From the NCBI GenBank assembly GCA_036726225.1, contig DAIMCS010000002.1, positions 123,743-187,742 of the forward strand: a stretch of 64,000 nt of DNA, in the 5' to 3' direction. The notes below the pieces were generated by a model. The model saw nothing but the letters and a program-made list of their open reading frames with translations, had not been told where the DNA came from and did no database searches. This DNA is from Patescibacteria group bacterium. GTDB lineage: Bacteria > Patescibacteriota > Doudnabacteria > UBA920. Positions 16,051 to 34,603 of the stretch are shown one piece after another. The position numbers and the translations under genes are program-made. Every line of letters starts with the position of its first letter. Position 1 is the stretch's first letter.

Positions 16051-16070
16051 CCTGCCTGCCGGCAGGCAGG
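16051..16070. repeat. 20-bp perfect palindrome CCTGCCTGCCGGCAGGCAGG (mini-element); other copies at 25816-25835 and 33451-33471
   Basis: Exact string recurs three times in the window. Confidence 0.9.
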
Positions 16071-16089
16071 CTCGAGATGGAAAAGAAAT

Positions 16090-16124
16090 GGCGTTATCCT
16101 GATCATACGGATCAGGATAACGCC
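16090..16124. terminator. Bidirectional terminator hairpin between convergent genes
   Basis: ggcgttatcctgatc-atac-ggatcaggataacgcc, a perfect 15-bp stem. Confidence 0.7.
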
Positions 16125-16141
16125 ATAAGAGCCCCGGCGGG

Positions 16142-16357
16142 CTAACCGGAAAGCACAGACACCTCTTCTCCTTCCGGAAATACTTCCACGGGCCTGCCTG
16201 TGTTGGAAAAAACCAGTCCGTTGGGGCCGACCGTATAGGCGTAGTTGCCTGGTCCGGTGCTGGCAAGTTTTGCGCCTTCCTGAAGCTCTTCAAATCCGCA
16301 GCCGCTTTGAAAGCCCACCTTACCATCTTTTTCAGTCAATGTAACGAAGCGCGCCAT
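16142..16357 (-). CDS. Small Gly-rich hypothetical protein (71 aa), GC-rich, strong SD
   Basis: AAGGAGG 7 nt upstream of the ATG on the minus strand; flanked by the palindrome and a terminator; no homology recognised. Confidence 0.5.
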   Translation of the reverse strand: MARFVTLTEKDGKVGFQSGCGFEELQEGAKLASTGPGNYAYTVGPNGLVFSNTGRPVEVFPEGEEVSVLSG

Positions 16358-16412
16358 GAGTGAACCTCCTTATATTAGAAGAAATATATAACCTAAGTTT
16401 GTTTAAGTCAAT

Positions 16413-17273
16413 ATGGATCTTTCAATAATAATTCTTTCATATAAATCCAAAGAGCACCTCCAGGTGCTTTTGCCGAGTGTTTTTAATTCGACCAAAAAAT
16501 ATTCGTACGAAGTAATAGTGGTAGATAACGATTCGGGCGACGGAACGGCAGAAGCCGTTGAAAGTTTACTTCCTTCTATCCCTAATTTGAGGCTAATACG
16601 AAACCAAAACACGGGCTTTGCGGCCGGAAATAATTTAGGGATAAAGCAGGCAAAAGGTAAATATATTTTGTTGCTTAACCCTGACACCAAAGTTGAGCGC
16701 GATACTTTTGAAACAATGCTGGATATGATGGAGAACCGGCCTGAAGTGGGGATGTCCGGCTGTAAAATAATAAAACCCGACGGTACTTTAGATTTAGCTT
16801 GCCGCCGCCGTTTCCCAAACCCGTGGAATAGTTTTAAAACTTTATTTTTAGGCAGCAGGAAAAATTATAATTATAGCGATGTTGATGAAAACCAAGAAAT
16901 GGAAGTCGACAGCGTAGTTGGAGCGTTTTTGCTTATCCGAAAATCTGTAATAGAAAGAATTGGCTTGCTGGACGAAAGTTTTTTTATGTACGGGGAAGAT
17001 TTAGACTGGGCTTACCGCTGCCAGCGTAACGGATTTAAAGTATGGTATTACCCAAAAACTTTTATTACCCACTATAAGGGCGCTTCGTCTGCCAAAGCGC
17101 CGTTTAAAGCTTTAAAGTGGTTCCACGACGCTATGTGGATTTTTTACAAAAAACATTATGCCCGAAAATATGTTTTCGCCTTTAACTGGCTGGTGTTTTT
17201 AGGAATATATTTTAGGCTTTTAGTTTTAACTTTGGTTAATTTTTTTAAAAAGAAGCCTGTTGTGAGCCGTTAA
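16413..17273 (+). CDS. Family 2 glycosyltransferase
   Basis: LSIIILSYKSKEHL...VVDNDSGDGT...NPDT GT-A motifs. Confidence 0.85.
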   Translation: MDLSIIILSYKSKEHLQVLLPSVFNSTKKYSYEVIVVDNDSGDGTAEAVESLLPSIPNLRLIRNQNTGFAAGNNLGIKQAKGKYILLLNPDTKVERDTFETMLDMMENRPEVGMSGCKIIKPDGTLDLACRRRFPNPWNSFKTLFLGSRKNYNYSDVDENQEMEVDSVVGAFLLIRKSVIERIGLLDESFFMYGEDLDWAYRCQRNGFKVWYYPKTFITHYKGASSAKAPFKALKWFHDAMWIFYKKHYARKYVFAFNWLVFLGIYFRLLVLTLVNFFKKKPVVSR

Positions 17274-17348
17274 TTTGGAATTTTGATATCAACATCTTTT
17301 CTGTTATAATAAATAAGCAAAATTAATAAAATCATATAACATAACATC

Positions 17349-18605
17349 ATGGAACCAGGAAATTTTAGTCCCACTCAACCTCCTAAACCGAATCACGGCT
17401 TTTACATTCGCGGCATTGCCGTGATTTTAATTTTAATCATTACTTATTTCCTCGGCTACCAAACCGGCCACAAGGGTTTTGTGTTTGAACCCAAATCTTT
17501 TCAGGTTATTAACCAAAAAGACCAGTCCGTCACAGTTGACTATAACTTACTCTGGGACGCTTTGGAGGTCATAAATAACAAATACATAGACAATCCGGTT
17601 GACCAGCAAAAAATACTATACGGCGCCGTCAGAGGCGCGCTCGATTCTTTGGGTGACCCATATACCGTATTTTTGCCGCCAAAGGAGCTGGAGAATTTTC
17701 AAACCCAGCTTAGGGGCAGTTTTGGAGGCATTGGCGCAGAGGTTGGTAAAAAAGATGGGAACATAGTAGTTGTTGCGCCGCTGTCTGAAAGTCCGGCAGA
17801 GCGGGCCGGCATTTTGGCGGGTGATTTTATTATTTCAGTCAACGGTGAGTCCACTGCAGGCTGGTCTGTGGAGCAGGCGGTGGAAAAAATTCGCGGAGAA
17901 AAGGGCACGGAAGTTACTTTAAATCTTTACAGGGAAGGCAAAGACAAGCCTTTTGAAGTAAAAATTGTGCGCGACACTATTGTAATTAAAAGCGTGAAGC
18001 TGGCTTATAAAGAGTCTGAAGTCAACGGGCTGAAAAAAACCGTGGCGGTTATAACTTTAAGCGAGTTTGGAGACGATACCAAAATTCTTTTTGACAAGGT
18101 CGTTAATGAAATTTTAACCAAAAATGTTTCGGGCATAGTTTTAGATGTCCGCAACAACCCGGGCGGTTATTTGCAGACAGCCGTTGACCTTGCTTCCGTG
18201 TGGGTAAATAAAGGCGAGATTGTGGTTTCCGAGGAACACAGTGACGGAACAAGCAAAAAATATAATGCGAGCGGGAGTAACAGGCTTTCCGGCATTAAGA
18301 CTGTAATTTTAATAAACGGCGGGTCAGCTTCGGCTTCGGAAATTTTGGCCGGTGCGCTGCATGACCACGGTATTTCTAAGCTCATTGGCGAGAAAAGCTT
18401 TGGCAAGGGCAGTGTGCAGGAATTGGTAGATTTATCCGGCGGTAGTGCGGTAAAGGTGACGGTTGCCAAGTGGATTACGCCCTCGGGAAAAAATTTGAAT
18501 AAAGAAGGACTGGTGCCGGATTTTGAAGTAAAGATAACAGAAGAAGACATAGCGGCAAAAAAAGACCCGCAAATGGACAAGGCGGTAGAGGAAGTAACTA
18601 AGTGA
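17349..18605 (+). CDS. ctpA: Carboxy-terminal processing protease (peptidase S41) with PDZ domain
   Basis: PDZ segment GGIGAEVGKKDGNIVVVAPLSESPAERAGILAGDFII. Catalytic Ser in GSASASEILAGAL and Lys in FGKGSVQ. Confidence 0.9.
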   Translation: MEPGNFSPTQPPKPNHGFYIRGIAVILILIITYFLGYQTGHKGFVFEPKSFQVINQKDQSVTVDYNLLWDALEVINNKYIDNPVDQQKILYGAVRGALDSLGDPYTVFLPPKELENFQTQLRGSFGGIGAEVGKKDGNIVVVAPLSESPAERAGILAGDFIISVNGESTAGWSVEQAVEKIRGEKGTEVTLNLYREGKDKPFEVKIVRDTIVIKSVKLAYKESEVNGLKKTVAVITLSEFGDDTKILFDKVVNEILTKNVSGIVLDVRNNPGGYLQTAVDLASVWVNKGEIVVSEEHSDGTSKKYNASGSNRLSGIKTVILINGGSASASEILAGALHDHGISKLIGEKSFGKGSVQELVDLSGGSAVKVTVAKWITPSGKNLNKEGLVPDFEVKITEEDIAAKKDPQMDKAVEEVTK

Positions 18606-18702
18606 TTGATCAAGATTTAAAAGAGTTAAATGATTGACATGATTAAGACGCAGGCTATTCTTGTCACTCTTGATCAATCTTGTCATTCATGTCAATTAAT
18701 TT
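18604..18702 (+). repeat. Intergenic repeat-family element (TTGATCAA / TTGACA-rich) directly abutting the alaS start codon
   Basis: Shares the motifs tgatcaagattt, gattgaca, cttgatcaatctt, catgtcaat with copies at 24748-24844, 25790-25907 and 31114-31196. Confidence 0.7.
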
Positions 18703-20502
18703 ATGCCAAAAATAACTGCTCAAGAACTTAGGGAAAAGTATTTAAATTTCTTTAAGTCTAAAAACCATACTATTATTCCTTCGGCGTCTTTGGTGCCGGG
18801 GTCAGAAACGTCCGCGCTTTTTACCATGGCCGGTATGTTCCCTTTAGTGCCCTATCTTTTGGGAGAAAAACATCCCGGGGGGAGCAGGGTTACCAATGTG
18901 CAAAAATGTATACGCACTATAGATATTGATGACGTAGGTGACAACACGCACGGAACTTTTTTTGAAATGATGGGCAATTGGAGCTTTGGTGATTATTTTA
19001 AAAAAGAAGCCATTGAGTGGAGCTTTGAATTTTTAACTAACAAAGAAACCGGTCTGGGTTTGCCTATTGAGCGATTGGGTTTTTCGGTTTTTGCCGGGGA
19101 TGGAGACGCGCCATTTGACGAAGAGTCGGAAAAGATTTGGCTGTCTTTAGGTGTTCCCAAAGAACGCATTGCGCGGCTTCCTAAAGAAGACAACTGGTGG
19201 ATAGCAGGGGAAACCGGCCCCTGTGGCCCCGACACCGAAATGTTTTACTGGATAGACGACGGCACTCCGGCGCCATCCAAGTTTGAAGGCAATGCTAAAG
19301 ACAAAAGATGGGTTGAAATTTGGAATGATGTCTTTATGCAGTACAACAAACTGCAGGACGGCAAACTCGTCCCGCTTCAAAACCCAAACGTAGACACGGG
19401 TATGGGTTTGGACAGGACTTTGGCGGTTTTAAACGGACAGACATCGGCTTACGATACAGAGCTATATAAAGGCATGTGGGAGGTTTTGGCCCTAGACCAG
19501 GACATTATGACTAACGATGAAGTCCGCAAGGGTAGAATTGTGCTGGACCATGTTCGAGCTTCTGTATTTATAGCAGGGGACGGGGTTGAGCCTTCCAACA
19601 AAGACCGCGGTTATGTTTTGCGAAGGTTACTTCGCCGAGCAATGGTTATGGGAAGGTTGCTGAACTTGAAGCACCATTGGCTTGAGGCTTTAGTTGGAAA
19701 AGTTGTGGCTGAATATTCAGAGGCGTATCCTGATTTAATGGATAAATCTGAAAATATTTTTGAAGTTTTAGACAAAGAAAAAAATAAATTTGAAGTCACT
19801 TTGGAAAAGGGGTTAAAAGAGTTAGGCAAATTGGTGCAATCCGACAGTCACGTAAAACAACATCCGTTAACCGGTAAGCACGCTTTTGATTTATACCAGA
19901 CTTATGGTTTCCCCTGGGAGCTTACAAAAGAAATGGGGGAGCAGTTTGGGCAAAAGATAGACAAGAAAGAATTTGAGGAGGAATTTAAAAAGCACCAGGA
20001 ATTGTCCAGGACTTCTTCTGCCGGTATGTTTAAAGGCGGACTGGTTGACTTGGAACCAAAAACCATAAGACATCACACTGCGCACCATCTTTTACTTGCG
20101 GCACTGCGGCAGGTTTTAGGCGACCATGTTTTCCAGCGCGGTTCCAATGTTTCGTCAGAAAGATTGAGAATAGATTTTTCGCATGGTGAAAAAATGACGC
20201 CCGAGCAAATTAAACAGGTGGAAGAAATTGTAAACCAAAAAATAGAAGAAGACCTAAAAGTTGAAAGAAAAGAAATGGCAAAAACCGAAGCGGAAAAATT
20301 AGGCGCGCTAGCAGAGTTTGGTGCTAAGTACGGTGATACGGTTAGTGTTTATTCAATTTACGAAAATGACGGCACGGCTTTTTCCCGTGAATTTTGCGGC
20401 GGCCCGCACGTGGAGCACACGGCAGTAATAGGTAAATTCAAAATTATAAAAGAGGAAGCATCCAGCGCAGGGGTGAGAAGAATTAAAGCAAGTGTAGAAT
20501 AA
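18703..20502 (+). CDS. alaS: Alanine--tRNA ligase, short form (catalytic and editing domains; no long C-terminal domain)
   Basis: Class II AlaRS N-terminus (FTMAGMFPLVPYLLG, FEMMGNWSFGDYFK). Editing-domain motifs HHTAHHLL and CGGPHV. Confidence 0.85.
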   Translation: MPKITAQELREKYLNFFKSKNHTIIPSASLVPGSETSALFTMAGMFPLVPYLLGEKHPGGSRVTNVQKCIRTIDIDDVGDNTHGTFFEMMGNWSFGDYFKKEAIEWSFEFLTNKETGLGLPIERLGFSVFAGDGDAPFDEESEKIWLSLGVPKERIARLPKEDNWWIAGETGPCGPDTEMFYWIDDGTPAPSKFEGNAKDKRWVEIWNDVFMQYNKLQDGKLVPLQNPNVDTGMGLDRTLAVLNGQTSAYDTELYKGMWEVLALDQDIMTNDEVRKGRIVLDHVRASVFIAGDGVEPSNKDRGYVLRRLLRRAMVMGRLLNLKHHWLEALVGKVVAEYSEAYPDLMDKSENIFEVLDKEKNKFEVTLEKGLKELGKLVQSDSHVKQHPLTGKHAFDLYQTYGFPWELTKEMGEQFGQKIDKKEFEEEFKKHQELSRTSSAGMFKGGLVDLEPKTIRHHTAHHLLLAALRQVLGDHVFQRGSNVSSERLRIDFSHGEKMTPEQIKQVEEIVNQKIEEDLKVERKEMAKTEAEKLGALAEFGAKYGDTVSVYSIYENDGTAFSREFCGGPHVEHTAVIGKFKIIKEEASSAGVRRIKASVE

Positions 20503-20510
20503 GGATAAAT

Positions 20511-21212
20511 ATGAGTGAAAGATTATCTATTGAACTCGAGCCAATATCTGGGCGAAAGCCTCATATAATTGAAATAAAAGAGGAGCAGCCAATAATGGGA
20601 CAGGGGCTTGAACCTAAAGTTAAAGTGAGAGCCGAGACTTCATTTGGTAAAAAAAGGTTATTTAGAAAGAGAAAAAGGAAAGAAGTCAATTTTGTTGAAA
20701 GAAAGTTAAATTCTCTGGATTCAGATGATTATATTGCTAAATGGAAACAGTTCAGCGAGGCTGGTTTACCCGTAGTGTCCACATTAAGAAAAAGCTCTAG
20801 AGATTCTTTATTTCAAACAGACCTAAAAAGTGATGGAACCGAATTGTATGGGAAAGCTTTTTGGTATCTAATTTATTCTAAGTCGGAATTTAGACTAAGA
20901 CCGGTCGATAAAATATTTTTAAACTTAACTGATACCAATAACTTTCAAAAAATTGCTGAAAAAGTATTCATGTATAAAGATTTAGCAGATAAAAATGGAA
21001 TTTTGCTCCCATACGATGACCCTTTTGAGTTAATAGTACATCCTGATGGGAAGTGGGATTTTGTAATAATAGATTTGAGATTTGGCGAGAAGTTAGAAGC
21101 AGGCAGTGGAGAAAGTCGGAGGAATGAAATAGTTGAAAAAAATTCGAGATTCGTTGGAAATTTTCTGGATCAGTTAAAATATATTAGGGTAGCTCTTTTA
21201 GAAAAAATATGA
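20511..21212 (+). CDS. Hypothetical protein (233 aa)
   Basis: Long ORF in operon arrangement with alaS and pgi; no motif recognised. Confidence 0.55.
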   Translation: MSERLSIELEPISGRKPHIIEIKEEQPIMGQGLEPKVKVRAETSFGKKRLFRKRKRKEVNFVERKLNSLDSDDYIAKWKQFSEAGLPVVSTLRKSSRDSLFQTDLKSDGTELYGKAFWYLIYSKSEFRLRPVDKIFLNLTDTNNFQKIAEKVFMYKDLADKNGILLPYDDPFELIVHPDGKWDFVIIDLRFGEKLEAGSGESRRNEIVEKNSRFVGNFLDQLKYIRVALLEKI

Positions 21213-22396
21213 AACTTGAATTTTACAATTGTCCTCAACCCGAAAATATGGATTCCCGCCTGCGCGGGAATGGGGTTTCGATTTTGCCTGAAGCGCCGGA
21301 GTTTTTAACGTACAAACCGGATTTTGAAGGTATGAAAAAGATTGCGGATGGCTATGCTAATTATCAAAACATCCTAATTCTTGCGCACGGAGGCAGCCTT
21401 ACATCTTTTTATGGTTTTTATAATGCATTCTTAGAGCAAACCAAGAAGAAGGTTTATTTTTTAAACACAGTTGACCCGGATTATATTTTTGAGCTCAAGC
21501 AAAAGCTTATGCCGACAAACACGGTTGTGGTTGCAATTAGCAAGTCAGGAGAAAACACAACCCAACTCGAAATGTTAATGCAGTTTTTAGACTACCCGCT
21601 CATTATAGTTACCGGTAAAAGCAGTCCGCTTAGGGCAGTGGGGGAAAAAATAGGCGCAAAAATTGTAACTCACCCCCCAATTGGCGGCCGCTATACCGGC
21701 TTTACCGAAGTTGCGTTGCTGCCGGCTGCTATGTGCGGTCTGGACGTGCGCGGGTTTGAGGAAGGCGCGAAAGAATTTTATAAATTCTACCAAAAAGACA
21801 ATTTAGCCTGGAAAGCCGCGTCGGTTTTGTACCAGCTGGAGCAAAAAGGTTATGTAGATGTGTTTATGCCTTTTTACACGCATTATCTATTTTTTATGAG
21901 CAATATAATTGTCCAGCTTTGCCATGAGTCGTTTGGAAAGGAGGGGAAAGGCCAGACCTATTTTGCCCACGAGGCGCCCGAGTCCCAGCACCATACCAAT
22001 CAGAGGTTCTTTGGCGGACCCAAAAATATTTGCGGATTTTTTATTGGCGTGGAAAATTTTAACCATCCAACCCAAAATAATTTTCCTCTAGGCACACATA
22101 GCGTACAGCTAAAAGGCCATTCCCTTTTTGACATAAATAAAATTCCGTTGGAAAAGGCTTTGGAGTTTGAGCTGCAAGGCACAATGGAGGACGCCCGTAT
22201 TTACGGCATTCCTTTAATTCGTCTTTCCGTAACCAGTTTTACTGCTTTTGAAATTGGCCAGTTTTTGGCTTTTTGGCAGCTGTTTGCTGTCTACTCATCT
22301 GTGCTAAGGGGAGTGGACCCTTTTGACCAGCCGCAGGTGGAAAACAGCAAGAACATTAGCTTTAATAAAAGGCTAGGATATAAGGGGCTGCTTTAA
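21209..22396 (+). CDS. pgi: Glucose-6-phosphate isomerase, short SIS-domain type
   Basis: SIS/PGI motif VVAISKSGENTTQLE; 395 aa. Confidence 0.7.
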   Translation: MKLEFYNCPQPENMDSRLRGNGVSILPEAPEFLTYKPDFEGMKKIADGYANYQNILILAHGGSLTSFYGFYNAFLEQTKKKVYFLNTVDPDYIFELKQKLMPTNTVVVAISKSGENTTQLEMLMQFLDYPLIIVTGKSSPLRAVGEKIGAKIVTHPPIGGRYTGFTEVALLPAAMCGLDVRGFEEGAKEFYKFYQKDNLAWKAASVLYQLEQKGYVDVFMPFYTHYLFFMSNIIVQLCHESFGKEGKGQTYFAHEAPESQHHTNQRFFGGPKNICGFFIGVENFNHPTQNNFPLGTHSVQLKGHSLFDINKIPLEKALEFELQGTMEDARIYGIPLIRLSVTSFTAFEIGQFLAFWQLFAVYSSVLRGVDPFDQPQVENSKNISFNKRLGYKGLL

Positions 22397-22406
22397 TGCT
22401 GGAATT

Positions 22407-22482
22407 CGTATAAGGTATTAGGTATAATGTATAAAGTATAAGGCATCAGACCCCCTTATACTTTATACGGCATACCTTATAC
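22407..22482. repeat. ~76-bp imperfect palindromic element; its left arm (30 nt) recurs in frame inside pepN at 46371-46400
   Basis: cgtataaggtattaggtataatgtataaagtataagg ... ccttatactttatacggcataccttatac. Confidence 0.8.
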
Positions 22483-22489
22483 TTTCTAA

Positions 22490-24181
22490 ATGACCATACC
22501 CAGCATTTACATAAACCTTGAGGACGATGTAAGCAAAATTGTCCAAAGAATAAACCGGGAGAGATCTCCCAGTCTTATTTTAGTTTGCCCAAAACGCTGT
22601 TTTTTGTTTTCCGACAGCATTAACCTGAAGCTTTTAAAAAAGCAGACAGATGCATTAGGCAAAGAAATTTTTGTGCTGACTATGGATGAAAAGGGCCAGG
22701 CTTACGCCCAGGAAGCCGGTTTTCAGTTAAAGTTTTTGCCGAAAATGAATGCCAATAAGGCGATTTCCGATATCCGCGTGGCTAAAAAATCCAGCCCTGA
22801 AGAGCAGGCGGAAGCAGCAAAAGTAGAAGGAGTGTTGGCAAGCACTGTAAAAGAAGTGCAAGAAGTTGTAAAAAGATTTGTGCCGGCTTCGGTTTTAAAG
22901 TCGGAAAATATGGAAGCTGACCAGGAACCCGTTACTCCAATATTGTCCGACACCTATTACCCCCAAGAGAGCCAGGCGGTTTTAAAAAAACCTGCCAAAA
23001 AATCCCATATTAATAAATTTATTATTGCAACAGTCACAGTCTCTTTAATTGTTATTTTACTTTTGGTATTTGTAATTTTGCCAAAAGCCACGGTAATTGT
23101 TTACGCTCGAAGCGAGCCGCTTACCCGGGATTTTTTGGAAATAAGTTTGAGCCCGAACGTTAAGGCAATAGATTACGCAAAACTTTCGTTGCCCGCAGAA
23201 AAAATAGAGACAGATGTTTTTGCATTAGACGATTTTCAAAGCCAGGGCAAAAAGCAAGTTGGCAACAGAGCAGCCGGAACAATAAAAATTTATAATTTTA
23301 CCAAGGTGCCCATTAATTTAAAAGCTTCTACTACGAGCTTTGTTTTAGGCGGCAAGATTTATAACCTGCTCTCGGACGTTTCGGGCCTTAAACCCACAAC
23401 TTATAAAAACGCCCAAACCAAGGAAGTCAACGAGGGTTCTTTGGGTGAGCCTTTCCAAATAATTGCCGCACAGGGAGGCGAAGATTATAATTTGCCTGCC
23501 GGCACGCGTTTGGAAATTACCAACGAAGTTTTTGGCAGCCAGCCGCAGCTTTTATACGCCAAAACTGAGAGCGAACTTACGGGGGGCACAACCCGTTATC
23601 TTTCTGTAATTTCCGCTGAAGACGAAGCAGAGGCAAAAGAAGCTTTGCTGGAATTATCTTTAAAGGAGTTTAGGTCCAAACTTGCCGCCGAAGGCAAAGT
23701 TTTAGCAGACAAAGCTTTTGCCACAGACAGTTTAGATTTTAAATTAAGCAATCCGGTCGGCACTGAAACCCCAAGTTTTGATGCGAGCATTAAAGCAAAG
23801 GTTTCGGGCTTGGTTTTTAAAGGCGAAGATTTAAAAAAATTAATTTTCGGCAGAATAGAAGAAACTTTAGCTTCCAATAAGACTTTGCGCGCAAAGAATC
23901 CTGACAAAACGGTTTACAGGATAAAAAGCTTAGATTTGAATAACCAGGTGGCAGTTATGGAAGCGCATTTTGAGGGCGAAGCGGTTTATAATTTAAATTT
24001 GCCTTACATTGCGCCTGAACTGGTGGGCAAAACCCAAAACGAAGTTTATGAAATACTTCGCTCCAAAGCGGAAATAGACAAGGTGGATATTATTTTAGCC
24101 CCCTCCTGGCAGAAAAATTTCCCGTATTTTGCTAAGCAAATTGAGGTAAAAGTGGCAACAGAGAATTTGGTTGGTAATTAA
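22490..24181 (+). CDS. Hypothetical bitopic membrane protein (563 aa)
   Basis: Single TM helix (FIIATVTVSLIVILLLVFVIL) between cytoplasmic and extracytoplasmic domains; no motif recognised. Confidence 0.55.
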   Translation: MTIPSIYINLEDDVSKIVQRINRERSPSLILVCPKRCFLFSDSINLKLLKKQTDALGKEIFVLTMDEKGQAYAQEAGFQLKFLPKMNANKAISDIRVAKKSSPEEQAEAAKVEGVLASTVKEVQEVVKRFVPASVLKSENMEADQEPVTPILSDTYYPQESQAVLKKPAKKSHINKFIIATVTVSLIVILLLVFVILPKATVIVYARSEPLTRDFLEISLSPNVKAIDYAKLSLPAEKIETDVFALDDFQSQGKKQVGNRAAGTIKIYNFTKVPINLKASTTSFVLGGKIYNLLSDVSGLKPTTYKNAQTKEVNEGSLGEPFQIIAAQGGEDYNLPAGTRLEITNEVFGSQPQLLYAKTESELTGGTTRYLSVISAEDEAEAKEALLELSLKEFRSKLAAEGKVLADKAFATDSLDFKLSNPVGTETPSFDASIKAKVSGLVFKGEDLKKLIFGRIEETLASNKTLRAKNPDKTVYRIKSLDLNNQVAVMEAHFEGEAVYNLNLPYIAPELVGKTQNEVYEILRSKAEIDKVDIILAPSWQKNFPYFAKQIEVKVATENLVGN

Positions 24182-24295
24182 GCTTTTATTTAAGCCAAGT
24201 TTTTGAATTGGCGATTTTTTGGTATTCTTATTGACATAAGCCGGGGGCTTATGTTAGAATAGCCAAGATAAAACATCTAAAATTTATTTAACAGT

Positions 24296-24744: not shown

Positions 24745-24747
24745 TTA

Positions 24748-24844
24748 ATTGACCAAGATTAAGTAAGATTTAAAAGATTGAACAAGAATGTAATGGCAAT
24801 CATGTCAATCTTGGTCAATCCTGATCAATCATTTAAATTCACCT
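24748..24844 (+). repeat. Intergenic repeat-family element abutting the rpsM start (copy B)
   Basis: Nearly identical to 25790-25907 except for the 20-bp palindrome insertion in that copy. The 3' 45 nt (aatcatgtcaatcttggtcaatcctgatcaatcatttaaattca) are identical in both. Confidence 0.85.
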
Positions 24845-25234
24845 ATGGCTAGAATTGCCGGGATAAATCTTCCCAACGAAAAAAGAATAGAAGCAGCCTT
24901 GCCCTACATCTACGGTGTAGGTTTAAGTTTGTCAAAAAAAATTCTGGCGGAAACCAGCGTTGATCCTAATAAAAGAACAAAAGATTTATCTGAACCCGAA
25001 CTTAACAGAATTAGGGAATATATAGAAAAAAGCTTTAAGGTAGAAGGGGAATTGCGACAGCAAATTTTGCTCAACATAAAACGCCTTAAAGAAATTGGGT
25101 CTTACCGAGGGGTCAGGCACATTAAAGGCCTGCCGGTCAGAGGACAAAGAACCAAAACCAATTCCCGTACCCGAAGAGGTAACGTTAGAAAAACCGCAGG
25201 CTCGGGTAGAAAGAACGCGGCGGAAAAAACCTAG
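24845..25234 (+). CDS. rpsM: 30S ribosomal protein S13
   Basis: [26 protein letters not shown]... Confidence 0.92.
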
Positions 25235-25786: not shown

Positions 25787-25789
25787 GTT

Positions 25790-25907
25790 AATTGAACAAG
25801 ATTAAGTAAGATTTACCTGCCTGCCGGCAGGCAGGAATGATTGAACAAGAGTGTACAGACAATCATGTCAATCTTGGTCAATCCTGATCAATCATTTAAA
25901 TTCATTT
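25790..25907 (+). repeat. Intergenic repeat-family element abutting the rpsD start (copy C), carrying a nested CCTGCCTGCCGGCAGGCAGG palindrome at 25816-25835
   Basis: Alignment by eye to copy B shows a clean 20-bp insertion. Confidence 0.85.
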
Positions 25908-26516
25908 ATGCGTTATACAGGTCCAAAAGTAAAAAAAGCAAGACGCCTGGGGATGGCTTTTACCCCCAAAGACGTAAAAATCCTCCAAAAGAGGAATTTT
26001 GCGCCTGGCCAGCACGGCCAAAACCGCAGCCGTCTTTCTGAATACGGAACCCAGCTCAAAGAAAAGCAGAAAGCTAAAGTGGCTTATGGAATAATGGAAC
26101 GCCAGTTCGAAATTTATTTTAACAAAGCTTTAAAGCAAACGGGAGTTACCGGTGACAACTTGCTCAAACTTTTGGAGCACCGGTTAGATAACATTGTTTT
26201 CCGTTTAGGTTTTGCTGAAACCCGCGCCCAGGCCAGACAGTTAGTTAACCACGGTTTTTTTGAAGTTAACGGCAAGCGCGTAGACATCCCTTCTTTTTCT
26301 GTTAAAGTCGGTGACATTGTTTCCGTCAGGCCGGTTAAACAGAAGAAAGCTTATATTGAAAAGATTAAAGAGAAGTTAAAGAATTTTAAAACTTTAGACT
26401 GGCTGCAATTAAACCCCGGTGAATTTAAAGGTAAAATTGTAAGCAGCCCGGAAGTCGAATCTTTGGGCTCCGAAATTAACACTCAGCTTATTGTTGAGCA
26501 TTATAGTAGGACATAA
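25908..26516 (+). CDS. rpsD: 30S ribosomal protein S4 (ORF track starts at an upstream in-frame M inside the repeat; true start MRYTGPK)
   Basis: MRYTGPKVKKARRLG...LDNIVFRLGFAETRAQARQLVNHG. Confidence 0.9.
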   Translation: MRYTGPKVKKARRLGMAFTPKDVKILQKRNFAPGQHGQNRSRLSEYGTQLKEKQKAKVAYGIMERQFEIYFNKALKQTGVTGDNLLKLLEHRLDNIVFRLGFAETRAQARQLVNHGFFEVNGKRVDIPSFSVKVGDIVSVRPVKQKKAYIEKIKEKLKNFKTLDWLQLNPGEFKGKIVSSPEVESLGSEINTQLIVEHYSRT

Positions 26517-26646
26517 ATTCGAAGTAAGAAATTCGAAATCCGAAAAATACAGAATTTCAAAAATTTAAATATTTATACATTAGAATTTAATAAGTGTTTC
26601 GAATTTCGATATTCGAATTTCGATATTAATTTGGAGGTCAAATTTT

Positions 26647-27585: not shown

Positions 27586-27666
27586 CAGATACACACTAAT
27601 TGAATCAGCGGATGAACACGGATCAGTGTTAATCCGTAAATATCAGCGTTTATTAGTTTTACTTAT

Positions 27667-28011: not shown

Positions 28012-28063
28012 TAGATTCAGCGTGTTATCAGCTTACTAATCCGCGATAATTCAGCGATTTAAT

Positions 28064-28486
28064 ATGAAATCTCAAATCACTACATTAGCAAATAAAGTCA
28101 GCCGCAAATGGCATCAAGTAGATGTTTCTAAAGAGCCAATGGGCCGCGTGGCAACACATATTGCCAATCTTTTGCGTGGTAAGCATAAGAGAGATTTTAC
28201 CCCGCACGTGGATATGGGCGACTACGTTATTGCCATTAATGCCGGGCATTTAAAACTCACGGGGCGAAAAGTTGCGCAAAAAAAATATTACAGACATTCG
28301 GGATACTTAGGGGGAATTAAATCTACCGCTTTAAAAGATTTAATTATAAAAAACCCGGAAGACGTGCTTAAGCGAGCAGTATTTTCTATGATAGACGATT
28401 TGAAATTTAGGAAGCAAATTATGTCACGTTTAAAAATTGTTAAAGGCGACAAGCACGATTATAAAGTGACAAACAATAATTCATAA
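28064..28486 (+). CDS. rplM: 50S ribosomal protein L13
   Basis: WHQVDVSKEPMGRVATHIANLLRGKHKRDFTPHVDMGDYVIAINA. Confidence 0.9.
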   Translation: MKSQITTLANKVSRKWHQVDVSKEPMGRVATHIANLLRGKHKRDFTPHVDMGDYVIAINAGHLKLTGRKVAQKKYYRHSGYLGGIKSTALKDLIIKNPEDVLKRAVFSMIDDLKFRKQIMSRLKIVKGDKHDYKVTNNNS

Positions 28487-28540
28487 AATAGTTGTCATCC
28501 CGAGCGACCGAAGGGAGTCGAGGGATCTCATCCAAGCATT

Positions 28541-29122
28541 ATGGTAACCAAAACACCCACAACCTCCGCCAAAGGCGGATCCGCCTCTGGCGGAAAATCA
28601 ACAGCCATTAAAGCGCCTCGTAAGCCCAGAGGTGCTGCTAAACCTGTCAAAGCAAAAGAAGTCGAGGAAGTTAAAACTCACGCGACTGCTGTTCATCCGC
28701 ATCCTGTAGAGCATAAACCGGCTCATGCTGAAAAAGGCAGGTATATTTTTGCAACCGGACGCAGAAAAACCGCTATTGCTAACGTCAGACTTTTTGAAGG
28801 CAAAGGCGAACAGGTTGTAAATAAACTTCCGCTTAAAAATTATTTTAACTATTCTTTTTATTTCGACGAAGTCATAAGGCCTCTGGAAGTTACAGGTCTT
28901 GAAGGCAAATATCACTTTACTGCACACATAAATGGCGGCGGCCCGCACGCCCAAGCAACCGCTTTGCGCCACGGTATAAGCATCGCCTTAGGCAGCATTT
29001 CTCAGGAAGTTAGAAAAGTTTTAAAAAAGAACGGCTTTTTAACCCGCGACGACAGAAAGAAAGAACGTAAGAAACCGGGTTTGAAGCGTGCAAGACGTTC
29101 CCCACAGTGGGCCAAGCGTTAA
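28541..29122 (+). CDS. rpsI: 30S ribosomal protein S9 with ~60-aa K/A/P-rich N-terminal extension
   Basis: RYIFATGRRKTAIANVRL...GGGPHAQATALRHGISIAL...KRARRSPQWAKR. Confidence 0.9.
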   Translation: MVTKTPTTSAKGGSASGGKSTAIKAPRKPRGAAKPVKAKEVEEVKTHATAVHPHPVEHKPAHAEKGRYIFATGRRKTAIANVRLFEGKGEQVVNKLPLKNYFNYSFYFDEVIRPLEVTGLEGKYHFTAHINGGGPHAQATALRHGISIALGSISQEVRKVLKKNGFLTRDDRKKERKKPGLKRARRSPQWAKR

Positions 29123-29138
29123 TCATTGCAAATTTAAA

Positions 29139-29166
29139 AAGACCACACTTATGTGCGGTCTTTTTT
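29139..29166. terminator. Hairpin plus T-run between rpsI (+) and the 3' end of rnpB (-)
   Basis: agaccacacttatgtgcggtcttttttt. Confidence 0.6.
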
Positions 29167-29168
29167 AA

Positions 29169-29512
29169 TGCTTTAAGCAAACTCGTAAGCCGAATTCTGT
29201 TTCTAAATAATCATCTATCTGGTCACGTTATTGCTAACGTGATCAAGCAACCTACCTAATTTGGTCTTGCACTCAAGTAAGGATTTGGCCGTTTCACCTT
29301 TAATGTTTCCATCAAAGCTAATCTCTTGCGAGATCCTTGGCGTCTTTCGTACCAAGCGTCTCTGTTCGCACCTCTAGGATTACTCCCGACGGGAATTACC
29401 CGCTACCAGTTTTGATAACTCATATGAGGCTATCAAATAAGTGTTCGGACTTTCCTCCCCAACCGGCATCTTGCGATGCCAATTAAAGCGATTATTCGGT
29501 TTGCTTAAAGCC
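29169..29512 (-). ncRNA. rnpB: RNase P RNA, bacterial type A
   Basis: The minus-strand reading contains GGGGAGGAAAGTCCG (P4 / CR-I), AAAGGTGAAACGGCC (GGUGAAA region) and ACAGAATTCGGCTTACGAG (ACAGAAnCCGGCUUA, CR-V). The P1 stem is gctttaagcaaac / gtttgcttaaagc. Length ~344 nt. Confidence 0.85.
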
Positions 29513-29533
29513 TAAAAAGTTTAACAAAAATAG

Positions 29534-29656
29534 TTGTTTTTGTCAAGGGAAAATGGTATAATAACTACAGAAAATTTTTGAAACACTACAGATAACTACA
29601 GAAAAATAAGCCAGTTACTTCTGTAGTCATCTGTAGATTTTTTTAGCTTCTGTAGT
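29534..29656 (+). promoter_or_regulatory. Promoter (TTGTCA ... extended -10 TGgTATAAT) followed by an array of CTACAGA / TCTGTAG direct and inverted repeats upstream of the initiating glycosyltransferase
   Basis: ggtataataactacagaaaatttttgaaacactacagataactacagaaaaataagccagttacttctgtagtcatctgtagatttttttagcttctgtagtttATG: three CTACAGA then three TCTGTAG. Confidence 0.6.
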
Positions 29657-29658
29657 TT

Positions 29659-31113
29659 ATGAAAAAAACCGAGCTTATTTTTAACCTTATTTCAATTGGT
29701 TTTGACGCTGTTTTTCTGCTCCTGGCGGGGATCGCGTCTTTTTATTTGAGGCAGACGAATTTTGCCACCAGGATAGTCGGCCACCCTGTAAGTTACGATT
29801 TGCAATTTCAGCAATTTATTTCTTCGGCTTACTCCGTGCTTCCGGTTTTGCTTTTAATTTTCGCGGCTTTAGGGCTGTATAATTTAAAAGGTACCCGAAA
29901 GTTTTCTTCCGAAATTGGGAGAATTATGGTCGGCACTTCGCTTAGCTTGCTGCTCATTATTTTAATTTTCTTTTTTAACACCAATTTTTTTGAGGACATA
30001 TTCCCTTCCAGGTTTATAATTCTTGCTGCCTGGGCTTTGGGGACATTGTTTGTCATTTTTGGCAGAACGCTTTTAAAACAGCTGCAAGTGTTAACGTTTA
30101 AAAATAATATAGGTTTGCATAAGTTGGTAATTATAAACGGCGGTCCCGAGCTCGACGTTATTGAAAGTATTTTGAAAAAAAAGGAACATGGTTATGAAAT
30201 TACCGGCGAATTCGCTTTTTCTGAAAATATTTTTGAGCAGCTGGAAAAATTGTATGAAGAAGGCAGGGTGGATGAAATTTTACAGGGCAATTCCAACTTG
30301 AATGACTCTGCAAATTTAAAATTGGTGCAATTTGCGCGTGACAAAGGCTTAAAATTCAGCTTTGTGCCCAATTTGTTTGAGGTGCAAAGAAACATTATTG
30401 AAACTGACAATTTAGACGGTATTCCGCTTATCAGTTTAAAAAATACTCCATTGGACGGCTGGGGCAAAGTGGTAAAGAGAATTATGGATATTATTTTAAG
30501 CGCGGTATGTCTTATTGCTACGTCGCCAATATTTTTAATTGTTTCCGTTCTAATTAAGTTCGATTCGGCCGGTAAAGTTATTTATTCTGCCGTTCGCGGC
30601 GGGCGCGGCAAAAATTTTAAGTTTTACAAATTCAGGAGTATGTACAGCCATTTAAGCATTGGCGAGGACTACGGCGGCCGGCAGGCGGAACAACTTAGAG
30701 AGCAGCTTTGGGAAAAAAATGACCGTGGCGGCAAAGAAGGGCCGTTTTTAAAAATTAAAGACGACCCTCGTGTGACTAAAATTGGCCGTTTTTTGCGCAG
30801 GACCAAACTGGACGAAATCCCGCAGTTTTGGAACGTGTTTGTGGGGGATATGAGTATGGTGGGCCCCAGGGCGCACGTGTTAGATGAGGTCGACAGGTAC
30901 AGGAACCGCTACCCCAGAATGTTTAGCATTAAGCCCGGGACTTTTGGGCTTTCACAAATTGCGCAAATGAACTGGCCGGATTTGCCGTTTGAGGAAGAAA
31001 TTAGGCTGAACACTTTTTATATTGAGAACTGGTCGCTGTGGCTGGATGTAAAAATTTTAGCAAAAAGTTTTTGGCAGCTGTTTTTTGGAAAAAAGCCCAA
31101 GGCAAACTATTAG
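29659..31113 (+). CDS. Undecaprenyl-phosphate hexose-1-phosphate transferase (WbaP/WcaJ-like 'bacterial sugar transferase')
   Basis: N-terminal TM bundle plus C-terminal catalytic domain with IMDIILSAVCLIATSPIFLIV...KFRSM...KDDPRVTKIGRFLRRTKLDEIPQFWNVFVGDMSMVGPR. Confidence 0.85.
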   Translation: MKKTELIFNLISIGFDAVFLLLAGIASFYLRQTNFATRIVGHPVSYDLQFQQFISSAYSVLPVLLLIFAALGLYNLKGTRKFSSEIGRIMVGTSLSLLLIILIFFFNTNFFEDIFPSRFIILAAWALGTLFVIFGRTLLKQLQVLTFKNNIGLHKLVIINGGPELDVIESILKKKEHGYEITGEFAFSENIFEQLEKLYEEGRVDEILQGNSNLNDSANLKLVQFARDKGLKFSFVPNLFEVQRNIIETDNLDGIPLISLKNTPLDGWGKVVKRIMDIILSAVCLIATSPIFLIVSVLIKFDSAGKVIYSAVRGGRGKNFKFYKFRSMYSHLSIGEDYGGRQAEQLREQLWEKNDRGGKEGPFLKIKDDPRVTKIGRFLRRTKLDEIPQFWNVFVGDMSMVGPRAHVLDEVDRYRNRYPRMFSIKPGTFGLSQIAQMNWPDLPFEEEIRLNTFYIENWSLWLDVKILAKSFWQLFFGKKPKANY

Positions 31114-31196
31114 AGTGAACAAGATTGATCAAGATTGACAAGAATGTCATCTAAAATCATGTCAATCTTTTAAATCTTATTTATTCTTGGTCAATT
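31114..31196 (+). repeat. Intergenic repeat-family element abutting the GT4 start (copy D)
   Basis: agtgaacaagattgatcaagattgacaagaatgtcatctaaaatcatgtcaatctt...cttggtcaattATG. Confidence 0.7.
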
Positions 31197-32270
31197 ATGA
31201 GGATCGCATTAGCACATGATTCCCTTACTCAAATGGGCGGGGCGGAAAGAGTGGTAGATGCATTACACGAACTTTTTCCAAACGCGCCTGTTTTTACATT
31301 GGTCTTTGACCCAAAGTTTAAAGAAAAGTATAAAGATTGGGACATTCAAACTTCACCACTACAGTCGCTGTACTTGGTTTTAGGAAAACTGCAATATTGT
31401 TTGCCGCTAATCCCGTGGGCGGTGGACCAGCTAAACTTTAGCGGCTACGATTTAGTTATTTCCTCCAGCTCGGGTTTTGTAAAAAATATCCGTGTGCCAA
31501 AAAATTGTGTGCATATAAATTATTGTCACACCCCAACCAGATTTTTGTGGAGCGATAACGATTATGTCAAACAGGAAGTAAATTTTTTCCTAAGGCCTTT
31601 TGTAAAAGTTTTTTTATCTAAAATGCGGAAGTGGGATTTAATTGGCGCCAAAAGGGTAACGCATTTTATTGCCAATTCAAAAGAAGTCCAGGATAGAATC
31701 CAAAAATATTATCAGCGTACTAGTACGCTGATATACCCGTTTGTGGATTCAAAATTTTGGAATTCGACAACGCCTAAGGGCGATTACTTCTTACTTGCAG
31801 GCAGGCTACATCCCCATAAAAAAAATGACCTTATTGTGGAAGTTTTTAATGACCTAAATATCCCGCTCCACGTTGTGGGTACAGGGAGGCAAGAGGGTTA
31901 TTTGAAGTCGATTGCTAAGCAAAATATTAGCTTTTTGGGCAGAATAAGCGACGAAGCGCTTAGGGATGAGTATAGCGCTGCTTTAGGGTTTATTTACCCA
32001 CAAATTGAAGATTTTGGCCTTATGCCACTGGAAGCCGCCGGCTGCGGCACAGCCACACTGGCTTACGGTGAGGGCGGCGCTAAAGAGACTGTTCTGCCCG
32101 GGGTAACCGGGGAGCTGTTTGACTCTTACAATGAGGAGAAAATTAAGCAGATGGTTTTGTCTTGGGATGCAAAAAAATATCGAACGGATGACTTAAAAAA
32201 CCAGGCAGAGAAATTTAGTAAAGAAAAATTTAAAAGTGAAATGTTAAATTTTGTAAAATCCCATGTCTGA
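31197..32270 (+). CDS. Family 4 glycosyltransferase; contains the 22-bp palindrome ATCAGCGTACTAGTACGCTGAT at 31720-31741
   Basis: GT-B C-terminal motif LAGRLHPHKKNDL...EDFGLMPLEAAGCGTATLAYGEGGAKETV. Confidence 0.85.
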   Translation: MRIALAHDSLTQMGGAERVVDALHELFPNAPVFTLVFDPKFKEKYKDWDIQTSPLQSLYLVLGKLQYCLPLIPWAVDQLNFSGYDLVISSSSGFVKNIRVPKNCVHINYCHTPTRFLWSDNDYVKQEVNFFLRPFVKVFLSKMRKWDLIGAKRVTHFIANSKEVQDRIQKYYQRTSTLIYPFVDSKFWNSTTPKGDYFLLAGRLHPHKKNDLIVEVFNDLNIPLHVVGTGRQEGYLKSIAKQNISFLGRISDEALRDEYSAALGFIYPQIEDFGLMPLEAAGCGTATLAYGEGGAKETVLPGVTGELFDSYNEEKIKQMVLSWDAKKYRTDDLKNQAEKFSKEKFKSEMLNFVKSHV

Positions 32271-33417
32271 AAACATACCCCAAAAAGGCGGGCCTGCCTC
32301 CGGCAGAAAAATTGCTATTGATTTAAGGAGTCTGTCTTCAGGCCGGGTTTCGGGGGTGGAAAATTACTGTTTGAATCTGCTGGAGAGTATGCCGCCGCTG
32401 GATAATCGCAACCAATATACATTTTTTTACAACTCACTGCGCAGACGCAAACTGCCCGATTTTCATTTTGTTAATTCCACCGTCCGCCATAGTCATATCC
32501 CCAACAAAATTTTAAATTTGGCATTAAAGTTAAACCTTACCAAGCTGGAAAATTTTATAGGAGAAACAGATTGGATTTTTATGCCTAATTTAAACCAATT
32601 TTCAATATATCCCAAATCCAAACTTGCCGTAACTGTTCACGACCTTTCGCCGGTTATGGCACCTGAATTCTATAATGTAAAAAGGAGGCTGTGGCATAAA
32701 TTTTTAAACTATAAAAAAGCTTTGGAAAGGGCGGATATTATTTTTACCGTGTCGGAATATACAAAAAACGATCTTATAAAAATTTTTAGTGTTCCCGCCG
32801 AAAAAATTAAAGTTGTTTACCCGGGGGTAAGCCACAAAGCTTTTCATCCGAACCTGCCGGAAAATTATTTAAGGGAAGTTAGAAATTTGTACAGTTTGCC
32901 CGGAAAATTTATTTTATTTTTAAACACAGTTGAGCCCAGGAAAAATTTAGGCACACTCGTTAAAGCTTTTGAAAAATTGCAGGACTCGACTAATTTGGTC
33001 GTGGCCGGAAGGCTTGGATGGAAGTATCGGGCAGATTTTAAGTTAATAAATAACAGCAGGAAATTGAACAAAATAAAATATATTGGCTACGTACAAGAGC
33101 AACATAAGCCCGCGCTTATTAAACTTGCTTCTGCTTTGGTTTACCCTTCGTTTTATGAAGGTTTTGGTTTCCAGTTACTTGAAGCCATGGCTGTGGGTAC
33201 ACCTGTGGTTGCCAGTCAGTTAACTTCTATTCCCGAGGTTACGGGTGATGCAGCATTGCTAGTTAACCCTTATGATGAAAATAGTTTAGCTGAAGCTTTG
33301 AGCGAAGTTTTAAATAATGAGGGCTTGAGGCAGGCATTGGTCGCTAAGGGAATTAGGCGGGCACAGCATTTCAACTGGCAAAAAACCGCCACAGGGATAT
33401 TGGGAGGATTGAAATAA
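32263..33417 (+). CDS. Family 4 glycosyltransferase
   Basis: EGFGFQLLEAMAVGTPVVASQLTSIPEVTGDAALLVNP. Confidence 0.88.
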   Translation: MSENIPQKGGPASGRKIAIDLRSLSSGRVSGVENYCLNLLESMPPLDNRNQYTFFYNSLRRRKLPDFHFVNSTVRHSHIPNKILNLALKLNLTKLENFIGETDWIFMPNLNQFSIYPKSKLAVTVHDLSPVMAPEFYNVKRRLWHKFLNYKKALERADIIFTVSEYTKNDLIKIFSVPAEKIKVVYPGVSHKAFHPNLPENYLREVRNLYSLPGKFILFLNTVEPRKNLGTLVKAFEKLQDSTNLVVAGRLGWKYRADFKLINNSRKLNKIKYIGYVQEQHKPALIKLASALVYPSFYEGFGFQLLEAMAVGTPVVASQLTSIPEVTGDAALLVNPYDENSLAEALSEVLNNEGLRQALVAKGIRRAQHFNWQKTATGILGGLK

Positions 33418-33418
33418 T

Positions 33419-34603
33419 ATGAATAATTACACGCTCTCCAAAGGCCGGTCCCTGCCTGTCCGGCAGGCAGGCGCCTTCGGCAGAAAAATCGGCTTAGATT
33501 TAAGGCTATTTGGCACAGCTCACGGGGGCATTGGCAGGTACTGCGAACAGCTTTTCCCGCGGCTTTTAAAATTGGACAAAGCAAACCAATATTTTGCCTT
33601 TGTGAATTCCAAAATGCTTCACACAGGCGCTTTAAAAGCGCTGGAAAGTTTGAATAACTGCAAAATTGTGGAAACAAATGCCAGGCATTATTCTTTTGGC
33701 GAGCAGCTAAGCTTTTTAAGGCTGTTAAATAAATATAAATTGGATTTAGTCCATTTCCCGAATTTTAATATGCCGATTTTCTACAAACGCCCGTTTGTAG
33801 TTACTATCCATGACATGGTTCACCATAAAATTAGCGGTGCAAAAAAAAGTCATCTGCTGCATTTTTTAGCCTATAAAAAAGTAATTGAGACCGCGGGCAG
33901 GCAGTCAAAAAAAATTATCACAGTATCCCAGGCTTCCAAAAAAGACATAAGCAATTTTTTGCAAATTCCCAATGACAAAATCGAGGTAATTTACGAAGCC
34001 GCATCTTTAAGTCCCCAAATCCAGGCCGCAAAAGTTTTAGAAATAAAAAAGAGCTACCTTTTAAGCAGCCCGTATTTTTTGTTTGTCGGGGTATTGGAAC
34101 GCAAGAAAAATTTAATTAATTTAACCAGGGGGTTTGACTATTTTTTACAAAAATATAAATTGAAAATGGACCTGGTTTTGGTCGGAAAAAAAGATCCGCA
34201 CTACCCGGACATTAAGCATAAGGCTATGGACATTAAGCATAAAGACAACTTAGTTTTTGCAGACCAGGTGGATGATGAAGAATTGGCAGCTCTCTATAGC
34301 GGGGCTTATGCTTTTACCTCGGCTTCTTTACATGAAGGCTTTGGCTTGCCCGGGGTAGAGGCTTTGAGTTTTGGTTTGCCGCTGCTTGCTTCTAATATTG
34401 AAGTTTTTAATGAAATCTATGACAACGCTGCTATGTATTTTAACCCGCTTGACCCGGCCGATATAGCTGAAAAAATGAACCTGCTGGCAAGGGACAAACA
34501 ATTTTACGAACAAATGAGCAAGAAAAGTTTAGAAAGGGCTCAAAAGTTTGGCTGGGACGAGGCAGCTGCGGCCACTTTAGAAGTATACAAACAAATTTTA
34601 TGA
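33419..34603 (+). CDS. Family 4 glycosyltransferase with an in-frame palindrome insertion near the N-terminus
   Basis: EGFGLPGVEALSFGLPLLASNIEVFNEIY. The N-terminus aligns to the upstream paralog (GRKIaIDLR) except for the extra LPVRQAGA encoded by cctgcctgtccggcaggcagg. Confidence 0.88.
   Translation: MNNYTLSKGRSLPVRQAGAFGRKIGLDLRLFGTAHGGIGRYCEQLFPRLLKLDKANQYFAFVNSKMLHTGALKALESLNNCKIVETNARHYSFGEQLSFLRLLNKYKLDLVHFPNFNMPIFYKRPFVVTIHDMVHHKISGAKKSHLLHFLAYKKVIETAGRQSKKIITVSQASKKDISNFLQIPNDKIEVIYEAASLSPQIQAAKVLEIKKSYLLSSPYFLFVGVLERKKNLINLTRGFDYFLQKYKLKMDLVLVGKKDPHYPDIKHKAMDIKHKDNLVFADQVDDEELAALYSGAYAFTSASLHEGFGLPGVEALSFGLPLLASNIEVFNEIYDNAAMYFNPLDPADIAEKMNLLARDKQFYEQMSKKSLERAQKFGWDEAAAATLEVYKQIL

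Follow-up and report, generated by a model that had tools for sequence, protein, structure and literature searches.

A precisely inserted 20-nt palindrome in a Doudnabacteria genome and its likely pairing with miniature GIY-YIG nucleases

We examined a 64,000-nt stretch of the genome of a Patescibacteria group bacterium (Doudnabacteria, UBA920; contig DAIMCS010000002.1, positions 123,743 to 187,742), hereafter the window, for a short palindrome that an earlier note had described as a mobile mini-insertion. The element, which we call P, is a 20-bp perfect palindrome, CCTGCCTGCCGGCAGGCAGG, and occurs twice in exact form. A third copy, P21 (CCTGCCTG-T-CCGGCAGGCAGG), is 21 bp long and carries an extra T after base 8. 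The G+C content of P is 80%, compared with about 42% for the window. The three copies described earlier and their coordinates were confirmed, and the chance test agreed: none of 100 dinucleotide-preserving shuffles contained two or more P matches, even at three mismatches. The copies and the features around them are listed here.

16051-16070, no strand: P copy 1, exact palindrome (22-bp palindrome if extended, 16050-16071)
16041-16077: outer imperfect hairpin around P copy 1, with a CTCTC...GAGAT-type stem; in the fold, 16041-16045 is paired with 16073-16077
25816-25835, no strand: P copy 2, exact palindrome in the rpsK-rpsD spacer, inside repeat C
25788-25910, + strand: repeat copy C, the filled site hosting P copy 2, in the rpsK-rpsD spacer before rpsD
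24745-24847, + strand: repeat copy B, the paralogous empty site, in the rpmJ-rpsM spacer before rpsM; contiguous where C has P
33451-33471, + strand: P21 (copy 3), in frame in GT4-b (family-4 glycosyltransferase, 33419-34603), read LPVRQAG
32293-32306, + strand: CCTGCCT-CCGGCAG, a truncated form resembling P, in GT4-a's N-terminal leader, exactly at the position of the orthologues' ATG

Copy 1 lies 17 nt past the stop of a GT2 gene (family-2 glycosyltransferase, 14946-16034, + strand). On its other side is a small minus-strand open reading frame (ORF; 16357-16142), which was also found in a relative, so the copy sits between convergent genes, as had been noted. It occupies the apical part of the outer hairpin, an arrangement shared by several other genomes.

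The clearest insertion in the window is copy 2. Repeats B and C are about 100 nt long and 91-96% identical, and the single gap in their alignment is exactly 20 bases, which are P. The claim that P is nested in C and absent from B is therefore borne out. No duplicated target bases were found at copy 2 in the B/C alignment. The short, GC-rich, palindromic nature of P, and the fact that many of its carriers are metagenome-assembled genomes (MAGs), could raise the suspicion of a sequencing or assembly artefact, such as an adaptor or a chimera junction. We consider the chance of this negligible. Ten independent JGI/ENA assemblies of the same strain (identical ribosomal protein S11) all have P at 25816, so this copy is not an assembly artefact. 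Flanks are continuous and reading frames are kept, and among the carriers of P are cultured isolates, one single-cell genome and MAGs built from long reads. The B/C leader repeat itself contains CAATC repeats phased about 10 nt apart, with weaker relatives at 18604 and 31123, and could be promoter-like or UP-like or an autoregulation leader.

The third copy lies in frame in GT4-b, as stated previously. The accompanying claim, that the adjacent paralogue cleanly lacks the insert, proved weaker on closer comparison. GT4-a and GT4-b are only 29% identical, and their BLASTP N-terminal alignment is ungapped. Since GT4-a holds the truncated P-like sequence at the equivalent place, the contrast is between full-length and truncated forms, not between presence and absence. 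The ancestral ATG has been lost in both genes. Orthologues gave a sharper picture. An RQAG-type motif was present in the first 80 residues of none of 119 GT4-b homologues (56-73% identity), and nearly all of 45 inspected homologue N-termini begin at a conserved M(K/R)IGLDLR, without the 20-residue leader. A syntenic relative (locus L280; L numbers are our handles for loci) has a 50-nt spacer and an ATG in place of the P21 leader. Judged from these alignments, the P21-bearing leader of GT4-b is lineage-specific and the insert is clear against orthologues.

We then looked beyond the window. No further P was found within about 15 kb of the window ends. An exact-pattern scan that used one genome per species recovered at least 120 stretches with P. 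Carriers among the matches listed include many Patescibacteria classes, Bacteroidota, Omnitrophota, Planctomycetota, Gamma- and Deltaproteobacteria, Bdellovibrionales, Nitrospirota, Thermodesulfobacteriota, Elusimicrobia, Ignavibacteria and Chloroflexota, at least ten phyla overall, and their host blocks are mostly 33-50% G+C. Several carriers are cultured (Winogradskyella echinorum, Flagellimonas yonaguniensis, Longitalea luteola, Flavivirga sp., Aquiflexum lacus, Agriterribacter humi and Aestuariivivens sediminis). Viral contigs added 65 further stretches. Flanks were unrelated across the genome blocks, and no conserved flank or larger element was detected around P in them. The identical 20-mer is thus far from confined to this genome. 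Its sharing by Patescibacteria, Bacteroidota, Omnitrophota, Planctomycetota, Proteobacteria and phages implies that there is either traffic between phyla or a recognition system that is strongly conserved. One 29.5-kb viral contig (IMGVR_UViG_3300037242_000417; L251, L259, L262) has at least six P copies, several of them with P-free paralogous sites, and is a possible vehicle or hotspot.

Alternatively, P could be a structural signal that convergent selection produced many times, for instance a terminator, a binding site for a protein or a hairpin that stabilises RNA. P does fold into a hairpin, with a stem of 8 bp and CCGG as its loop (-8 kcal/mol as DNA), and copy 1 does lie between convergent genes. 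We regard this explanation as very improbable, as exact 20/20 identity across phyla in genomes of 35-45% GC is not expected from convergence. P also occurs in ORFs and tRNA fragments, it has no T tract on the sense strand, and Rfam gave no match for it. In an intrinsic terminator test, copy 1 was not called, copy 2 was called only antisense and copy 3 lies inside an ORF. The terminator-like hairpin near copy 1 is instead the one at 16088-16126, a perfect hairpin with 17-bp arms and a T-rich tail on the minus strand, which is probably the real terminator of the minus-strand gene.

The sites occupied by P resemble precise insertions. For 22 P copies in other genomes and viral contigs, a P-free paralogous site is present in the same locus and aligns without gaps across the junction; about 16 of these empty sites are unrelated to tRNA. 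Abutting identical bases amount to 0-1 nt in 94 of 109 copies, so the proposed check for target-site duplications came out negative in general. Three cases of a 7-bp abutting duplication were seen, all in heptamer tandem arrays. From these comparisons we conclude that P behaves as a discrete unit inserted with base precision.

The sites also show a preference. The base at -1 of P is A in 44% of copies, against a background of 29%, the base directly 3' is rarely A, and the context A[P]T accounts for 25 of 99 copies. Exact inverted repeats of at least 7 nt surround P in 15.6% of copies, compared with 3.7-4.5% in two controls. The enclosing hairpin is frequently of a GTCATYCC...GGRATC type with P in its loop (L024, L036, L057, L109, L111). 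P can also be nested in P (L023, L026, L049), always one base off the dyad, and other hairpins are found inside P at the same off-dyad point (L161, L167).

Within genes, the 21-bp form is over-represented. Among genome copies, with viral contigs set aside because of redundant entries and spurious frames at high GC, 9 of 20 P21 copies lie in open frames of at least 600 nt, compared with 14 of 103 copies of 20-bp P (odds ratio 5.2, p = 0.003). The frame-keeping form thus survives preferentially in genes. In-frame copies read LPAGRQ or LPVRQAG (L055 3381, L016 5955, L059 3795, L026 2815) in ribosomal protein S6 (rpsF), FtsK, RsmI and a dTDP-glucose dehydratase-like protein, and the hosts are different Patescibacteria and a gammaproteobacterium. 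The copies in L050 and L055 were considered as a same-site insertion in orthologues, and this was rejected because the proteins differ. P accounts in this way for a recurrent oligopeptide insert in housekeeping proteins of uncultured bacteria, which bears on gene calling and alignments.

A candidate protein partner appeared beside a few copies. In a curated complete WWE3 genome (L044), a 79-aa ORF begins 20 nt after P, and its only domain match is to the GIY-YIG catalytic domain (PF01541). The same order of P then nuclease was found in L070, in the viral locus L269 and in L119, where the contig end cuts the gene. In the genome scan, a nuclease within about 50 nt of P was limited to L044 and L070 (with L119 at its contig end), that is, 2-3 of 113 copies in 120 genome blocks among the matches listed, and 1 of the 65 viral stretches had a nuclease beside P. 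Most P copies are thus orphans. In L070 (3700-4240), the GIY-YIG domain is fused in frame in the middle of an HsdS (type I restriction specificity) gene, preceded by P and a degenerate P. Another small GIY-YIG ORF lies within the 23S rRNA gene of L113 (4755-5021).

We then collected 80 metagenome loci (L135-L214, 276 kb) solely for encoding relatives of the 79-aa ORF at 40-57% identity. Exact P or P21 was found at most 120 nt upstream of the nuclease ORF in 44 of the 80 loci, and a version within three edits in 59. All but 2 of the 56 exact P copies in these 276 kb lie less than 200 nt from a GIY-YIG domain; the other two are orphans. The ORFs are 77-91 aa long, match only PF01541 and consist of the catalytic domain alone. 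In 35 nuclease sequences the GIY/YIG tyrosines, the Arg, the His-Asn and the Glu are invariant or nearly so, which suggests an active enzyme. Among solved structures, UPF0213 proteins (1ywl, 1zg2; E 1e-9 to 1e-8) and SLX1 come nearest. NCBIfam has no family for the nuclease, with the TIGR01453 match far below its cut-off, and a cultured-phage collection yielded only distant GIY-YIG matches.

The neighbourhood of these genes is a tRNA cassette. An intact tRNA on the + strand starts between -45 and +130 of the nuclease ORF stop in 60 of the 80 loci. The nuclease ORF often lacks its own stop, runs into the tRNA and ends at a TAG within it. In 38 loci with both P and a tRNA, P is embedded in a second copy of nt 1 to 23-52 of that tRNA. 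Between 10 and 80 nt further downstream the nuclease ORF begins, and then comes an intact, P-free copy of the same tRNA. The duplicated tRNAs are Leu (18), Arg (12), Lys (3), Asn (3) and Phe (2). P is placed after tRNA nt 20-24 in 28 of the 38, after nt 14-15 in 5 and after nt 31-32 in 4, typically in the D-loop of the truncated 5' copy and less often in the anticodon loop. Examples are given in one line.

L139 2390-2830, and likewise L143, L146 and L153: truncated 5' tRNA with P, GIY-YIG ORF, intact tRNA

P lies upstream of the nuclease only, and downstream copies belong to the next unit in tandem cassettes (L136, L151, L154, L159, L202). A tRNA intron was considered for P and rejected, as removal of P restores no tRNA in L019, L044 or L119, where truncated 5' copies stand beside an intact tRNA. 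In some cassettes (L179, L201, L205, L046) a different palindrome of about 33-40 nt, CCCGCCCG...CGGGCGGG, occupies the same D-loop position. This hints, from the sequences, at several enzyme-hairpin pairs.

These results leave P as a unit that is precisely inserted, found across phyla, linked to a nuclease and placed in a tRNA cassette. The three window copies are orphans, and P has a likely protein partner encoded outside the window. We interpret P as a self-contained hairpin of 20 nt that is cognate to a widespread clade of 77-91 aa GIY-YIG nucleases, with orphans, the window copies among them, that were inserted precisely and with no target duplication into spacers, genes and the loops of other hairpins (probability roughly 0.7). 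The earlier idea of a mobile mini-insertion is supported in this form by the B/C gap, the 22 empty sites, the unrelated flanks across phyla, the nesting, the enrichment of P21 in ORFs and the nuclease linkage.

Orphans might instead be the footprints of deleted GIY-YIG cassettes, not independent insertions. Degenerate nuclease fragments do occur beside tRNA pieces (L089, L046). The two orphan copies in the cassette loci also sit in tRNA D- or T-loops. Most orphans, however, have no tRNA-like flank, and both the roughly 16 non-tRNA empty-site pairs and the B/C pair of the window gained exactly 20 bp and nothing else. Footprints are accordingly a poor candidate for the orphans in general, and we give them little credence.

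A stronger competitor is that P is a landing pad, which spreads by other means, while GIY-YIG cassettes home to, or persist beside, P-bearing tRNA fragments. P copies vastly outnumber nuclease genes, the window copies have no such gene nearby, and truncated tRNA copies can gather more than one kind of hairpin, in the manner of a passive safe haven (L151, L170, L171, L177). However, no other candidate enzyme, such as a RAYT or an IS200-type transposase, was seen beside P, and P is present in most cassettes of the clade at a fixed place in the tRNA. The replacement of P by a different hairpin at that place in L179, L201 and L205 is expected of co-evolving enzyme-hairpin pairs. On balance the landing pad seems unlikely to us, though it is the most serious of the alternatives.

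For the preferred reading, in which P is the nuclease's cognate hairpin, a route can be proposed. The A before P, the preference for loops (hairpin loops, tRNA D-, anticodon and T-loops, and P's own CCGG loop) and the exactness of insertion suggest a single-stranded DNA (ssDNA) hairpin target. Orphan P would be made in trans by the nuclease acting on hairpin-folded ssDNA and cutting preferentially after an A in the loop. The self-complementary 20-mer might arrive as a blunt duplex or in hairpin form, or template switching might copy it, and host repair functions would complete the joining or copying. The duplicated 5' tRNA of the cassette could arise by a single crossover between a circular unit, consisting of tRNA nt 1-N with P and the nuclease, and the chromosomal tRNA gene; homing to the D-loop followed by repair synthesis would give the same outcome.

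Several observations weigh against this reading. GIY-YIG nucleases are not known to form a covalent intermediate, so insertion would require other enzymes. Causality could be reversed, with the nuclease cassette homing to P. A surrounding hairpin is present at only 15-25% of orphan P sites, and the reading does not account for the 20-bp copies deep inside ORFs. Neither a GIY-YIG ORF nor a tRNA was found in the window or within about 15 kb beyond its ends, which leaves the partner in this genome unproven. Movement of P was not observed, and there is no strain-level presence/absence polymorphism among the ten assemblies. Three relatives (L131, L133, L134; S11 86-90% identical) have shorter rpsK-rpsD spacers without P, although these spacers are too diverged for a base-level empty-site comparison, and L131 also lacks P after its GT2 gene.

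A more ambitious version is that P together with its GIY-YIG nuclease makes up a minimal hairpin transposon of a new kind. In it a nuclease of about 80 aa, lacking a DNA-binding domain, would recognise the perfect 20-nt hairpin in ssDNA and, helped by host ligation or repair, move only that hairpin into genes, spacers and other hairpins' loops, while its own gene invades tRNAs through a self-repairing 5' duplication. We offer this tentatively, as a possibility that is more likely wrong than right. If true, it would mean that the same 20-mer has been kept unchanged across at least ten bacterial phyla and in phages. In any case, the link between P and the nuclease is a testable enzyme-substrate pair, for which cultured Bacteroidota carriers are available (Winogradskyella, Flagellimonas, Longitalea, Aquiflexum, Agriterribacter), and a nuclease with a defined 20-nt hairpin target could serve as an ssDNA tool.

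The window has other repeats and structures. The GT2 gene upstream of copy 1 carries in frame an imperfect GC-rich palindrome of about 102 nt (15499-15600; tgtcatcccgaccgagc...gctcggaatgaca), distinct from P, and the L131 orthologue of this gene (64% identical) lacks exactly the corresponding 32-residue stretch. This element is an in-frame hairpin like the Rickettsia palindromic elements (RPE), closer to them than P is. At the end of the same gene, a ttcgaacgaagtgagaaatc hairpin element (15995-16040) encodes the last GT2 residues, IHFERSEKSVL*, and is absent from the L131 orthologue. The family of this element carries P mid-element in L032 (Doudnabacteria) and L109. Long perfect spacer palindromes unrelated in sequence to P (40406-40441, 56935-56969 and 42049-42080; arms 14-18 bp) are probably terminators. 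A bacterial RNase P RNA of class A (29170-29507, minus strand; 122 bits, full length) was the only Rfam match. Two 273-nt copies (903-1175 and 1203-1475), 300 nt apart start to start and 99% identical within a 1092-aa ORF (234-3512), look like a recent internal duplication in a repeat-domain protein. A 31-nt repeat, TCGTATAAGGTATTAGGTATAAYGTATAAAG, occurs in two spacers (22406-22436 and 46370-46400; 97% identical).

We searched the literature for precedents. No paper was found that contains the 20-mer or describes the tRNA cassette, and a 12-mer half of P turned up only in two papers, both on unrelated human or mammalian topics. Nor did we find a paper linking GIY-YIG, tRNA genes and the Candidate Phyla Radiation.

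Among known elements, the GC clusters of yeast mitochondria and the PstI palindromes of Neurospora mitochondria are short and GC-rich in AT-rich genomes, nested and sometimes in frame. Unlike P they are organellar, differ in sequence and are not known to have a linked nuclease gene. Repetitive extragenic palindromes (REP) and bacterial interspersed mosaic elements (BIME) are short, extragenic, imperfect palindromes with a 5' GTAG tetranucleotide. They are species-specific, and their enzyme, the REP-associated tyrosine transposase (RAYT), is an HUH Y1 (IS200/IS605-like) transposase. What they would share with P is amplification in trans through a single domesticated nuclease gene that has copies of its repeat around it, recognition of the hairpins as ssDNA, and the lack of target duplication. 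P differs in being perfect, without GTAG, linked to a GIY-YIG gene and identical across phyla. The RPE are likewise palindromes tolerated in frame in protein genes, but they are about 100-150 bp long, confined to one genus and have no known enzyme, whereas P is 20-21 bp. A miniature inverted-repeat transposable element, or another derivative of an insertion sequence, was also considered and rejected, given the general lack of target duplication and the ungapped empty sites.

Free-standing GIY-YIG genes offer a nearer comparison. SegB of phage T4 reportedly has about 220 aa and a separate DNA-binding domain and cuts double-stranded DNA; it is not known to have a hairpin repeat, orphan repeats or a duplicated tRNA 5' end. 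It resembles the cassettes in being a free-standing GIY-YIG gene that lies among tRNA genes and spreads with them (PMC2330249). Cassette ORFs differ from homing endonucleases of the SegB type in being only 77-91 aa of catalytic domain.

In its workings the closest system is Ssn/NTS, which combines single-domain GIY-YIG enzymes of about 80-94 aa with a hairpin repeat of 20-50 nt, many orphan copies and a cross-phylum distribution. According to Chenal et al. 2025 (PMC11893778), Ssn enzymes bind their hairpin repeat as ssDNA and make a cut next to it, and the repeat stands on both sides of the gene (NTS-ssnA-NTS) and has been amplified within genomes. Of genomes rich in the repeat motif of this system, SRM, 81% carry ssnA. 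As in Ssn, the hairpin repeat P adjoins a single-domain GIY-YIG gene, with an exact copy at 44 of the 80 loci, or at 59 when up to three edits are allowed. P departs from the SRM consensus of the Ssn system (HGTCWYN(0-2)YYVSBRHN(0-5)WNVSBRGN(0-2)RNCYNB), having no GTCWY head, and SRM matches in the window numbered 0 against 0.07 expected. It also differs from the SRM in being a perfect, unoriented palindrome, and from the Ssn arrangement in lying upstream of the gene only. The cassette, moreover, occupies a tRNA gene whose 5' part is duplicated; the main text of PMC11893778 never uses the word "tRNA". Given the deviation from the consensus and the one-sided placement, these sequences do not establish membership of the P system in the Ssn family. 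The pairing nevertheless carries the Ssn/NTS principle over to another motif and to a gene architecture that invades tRNA genes. Systems in which a hairpin repeat goes with a miniature GIY-YIG nuclease have recently been recognised as a kind, and what is unusual here is the constancy of the sequence across phyla and the tRNA-invading architecture.

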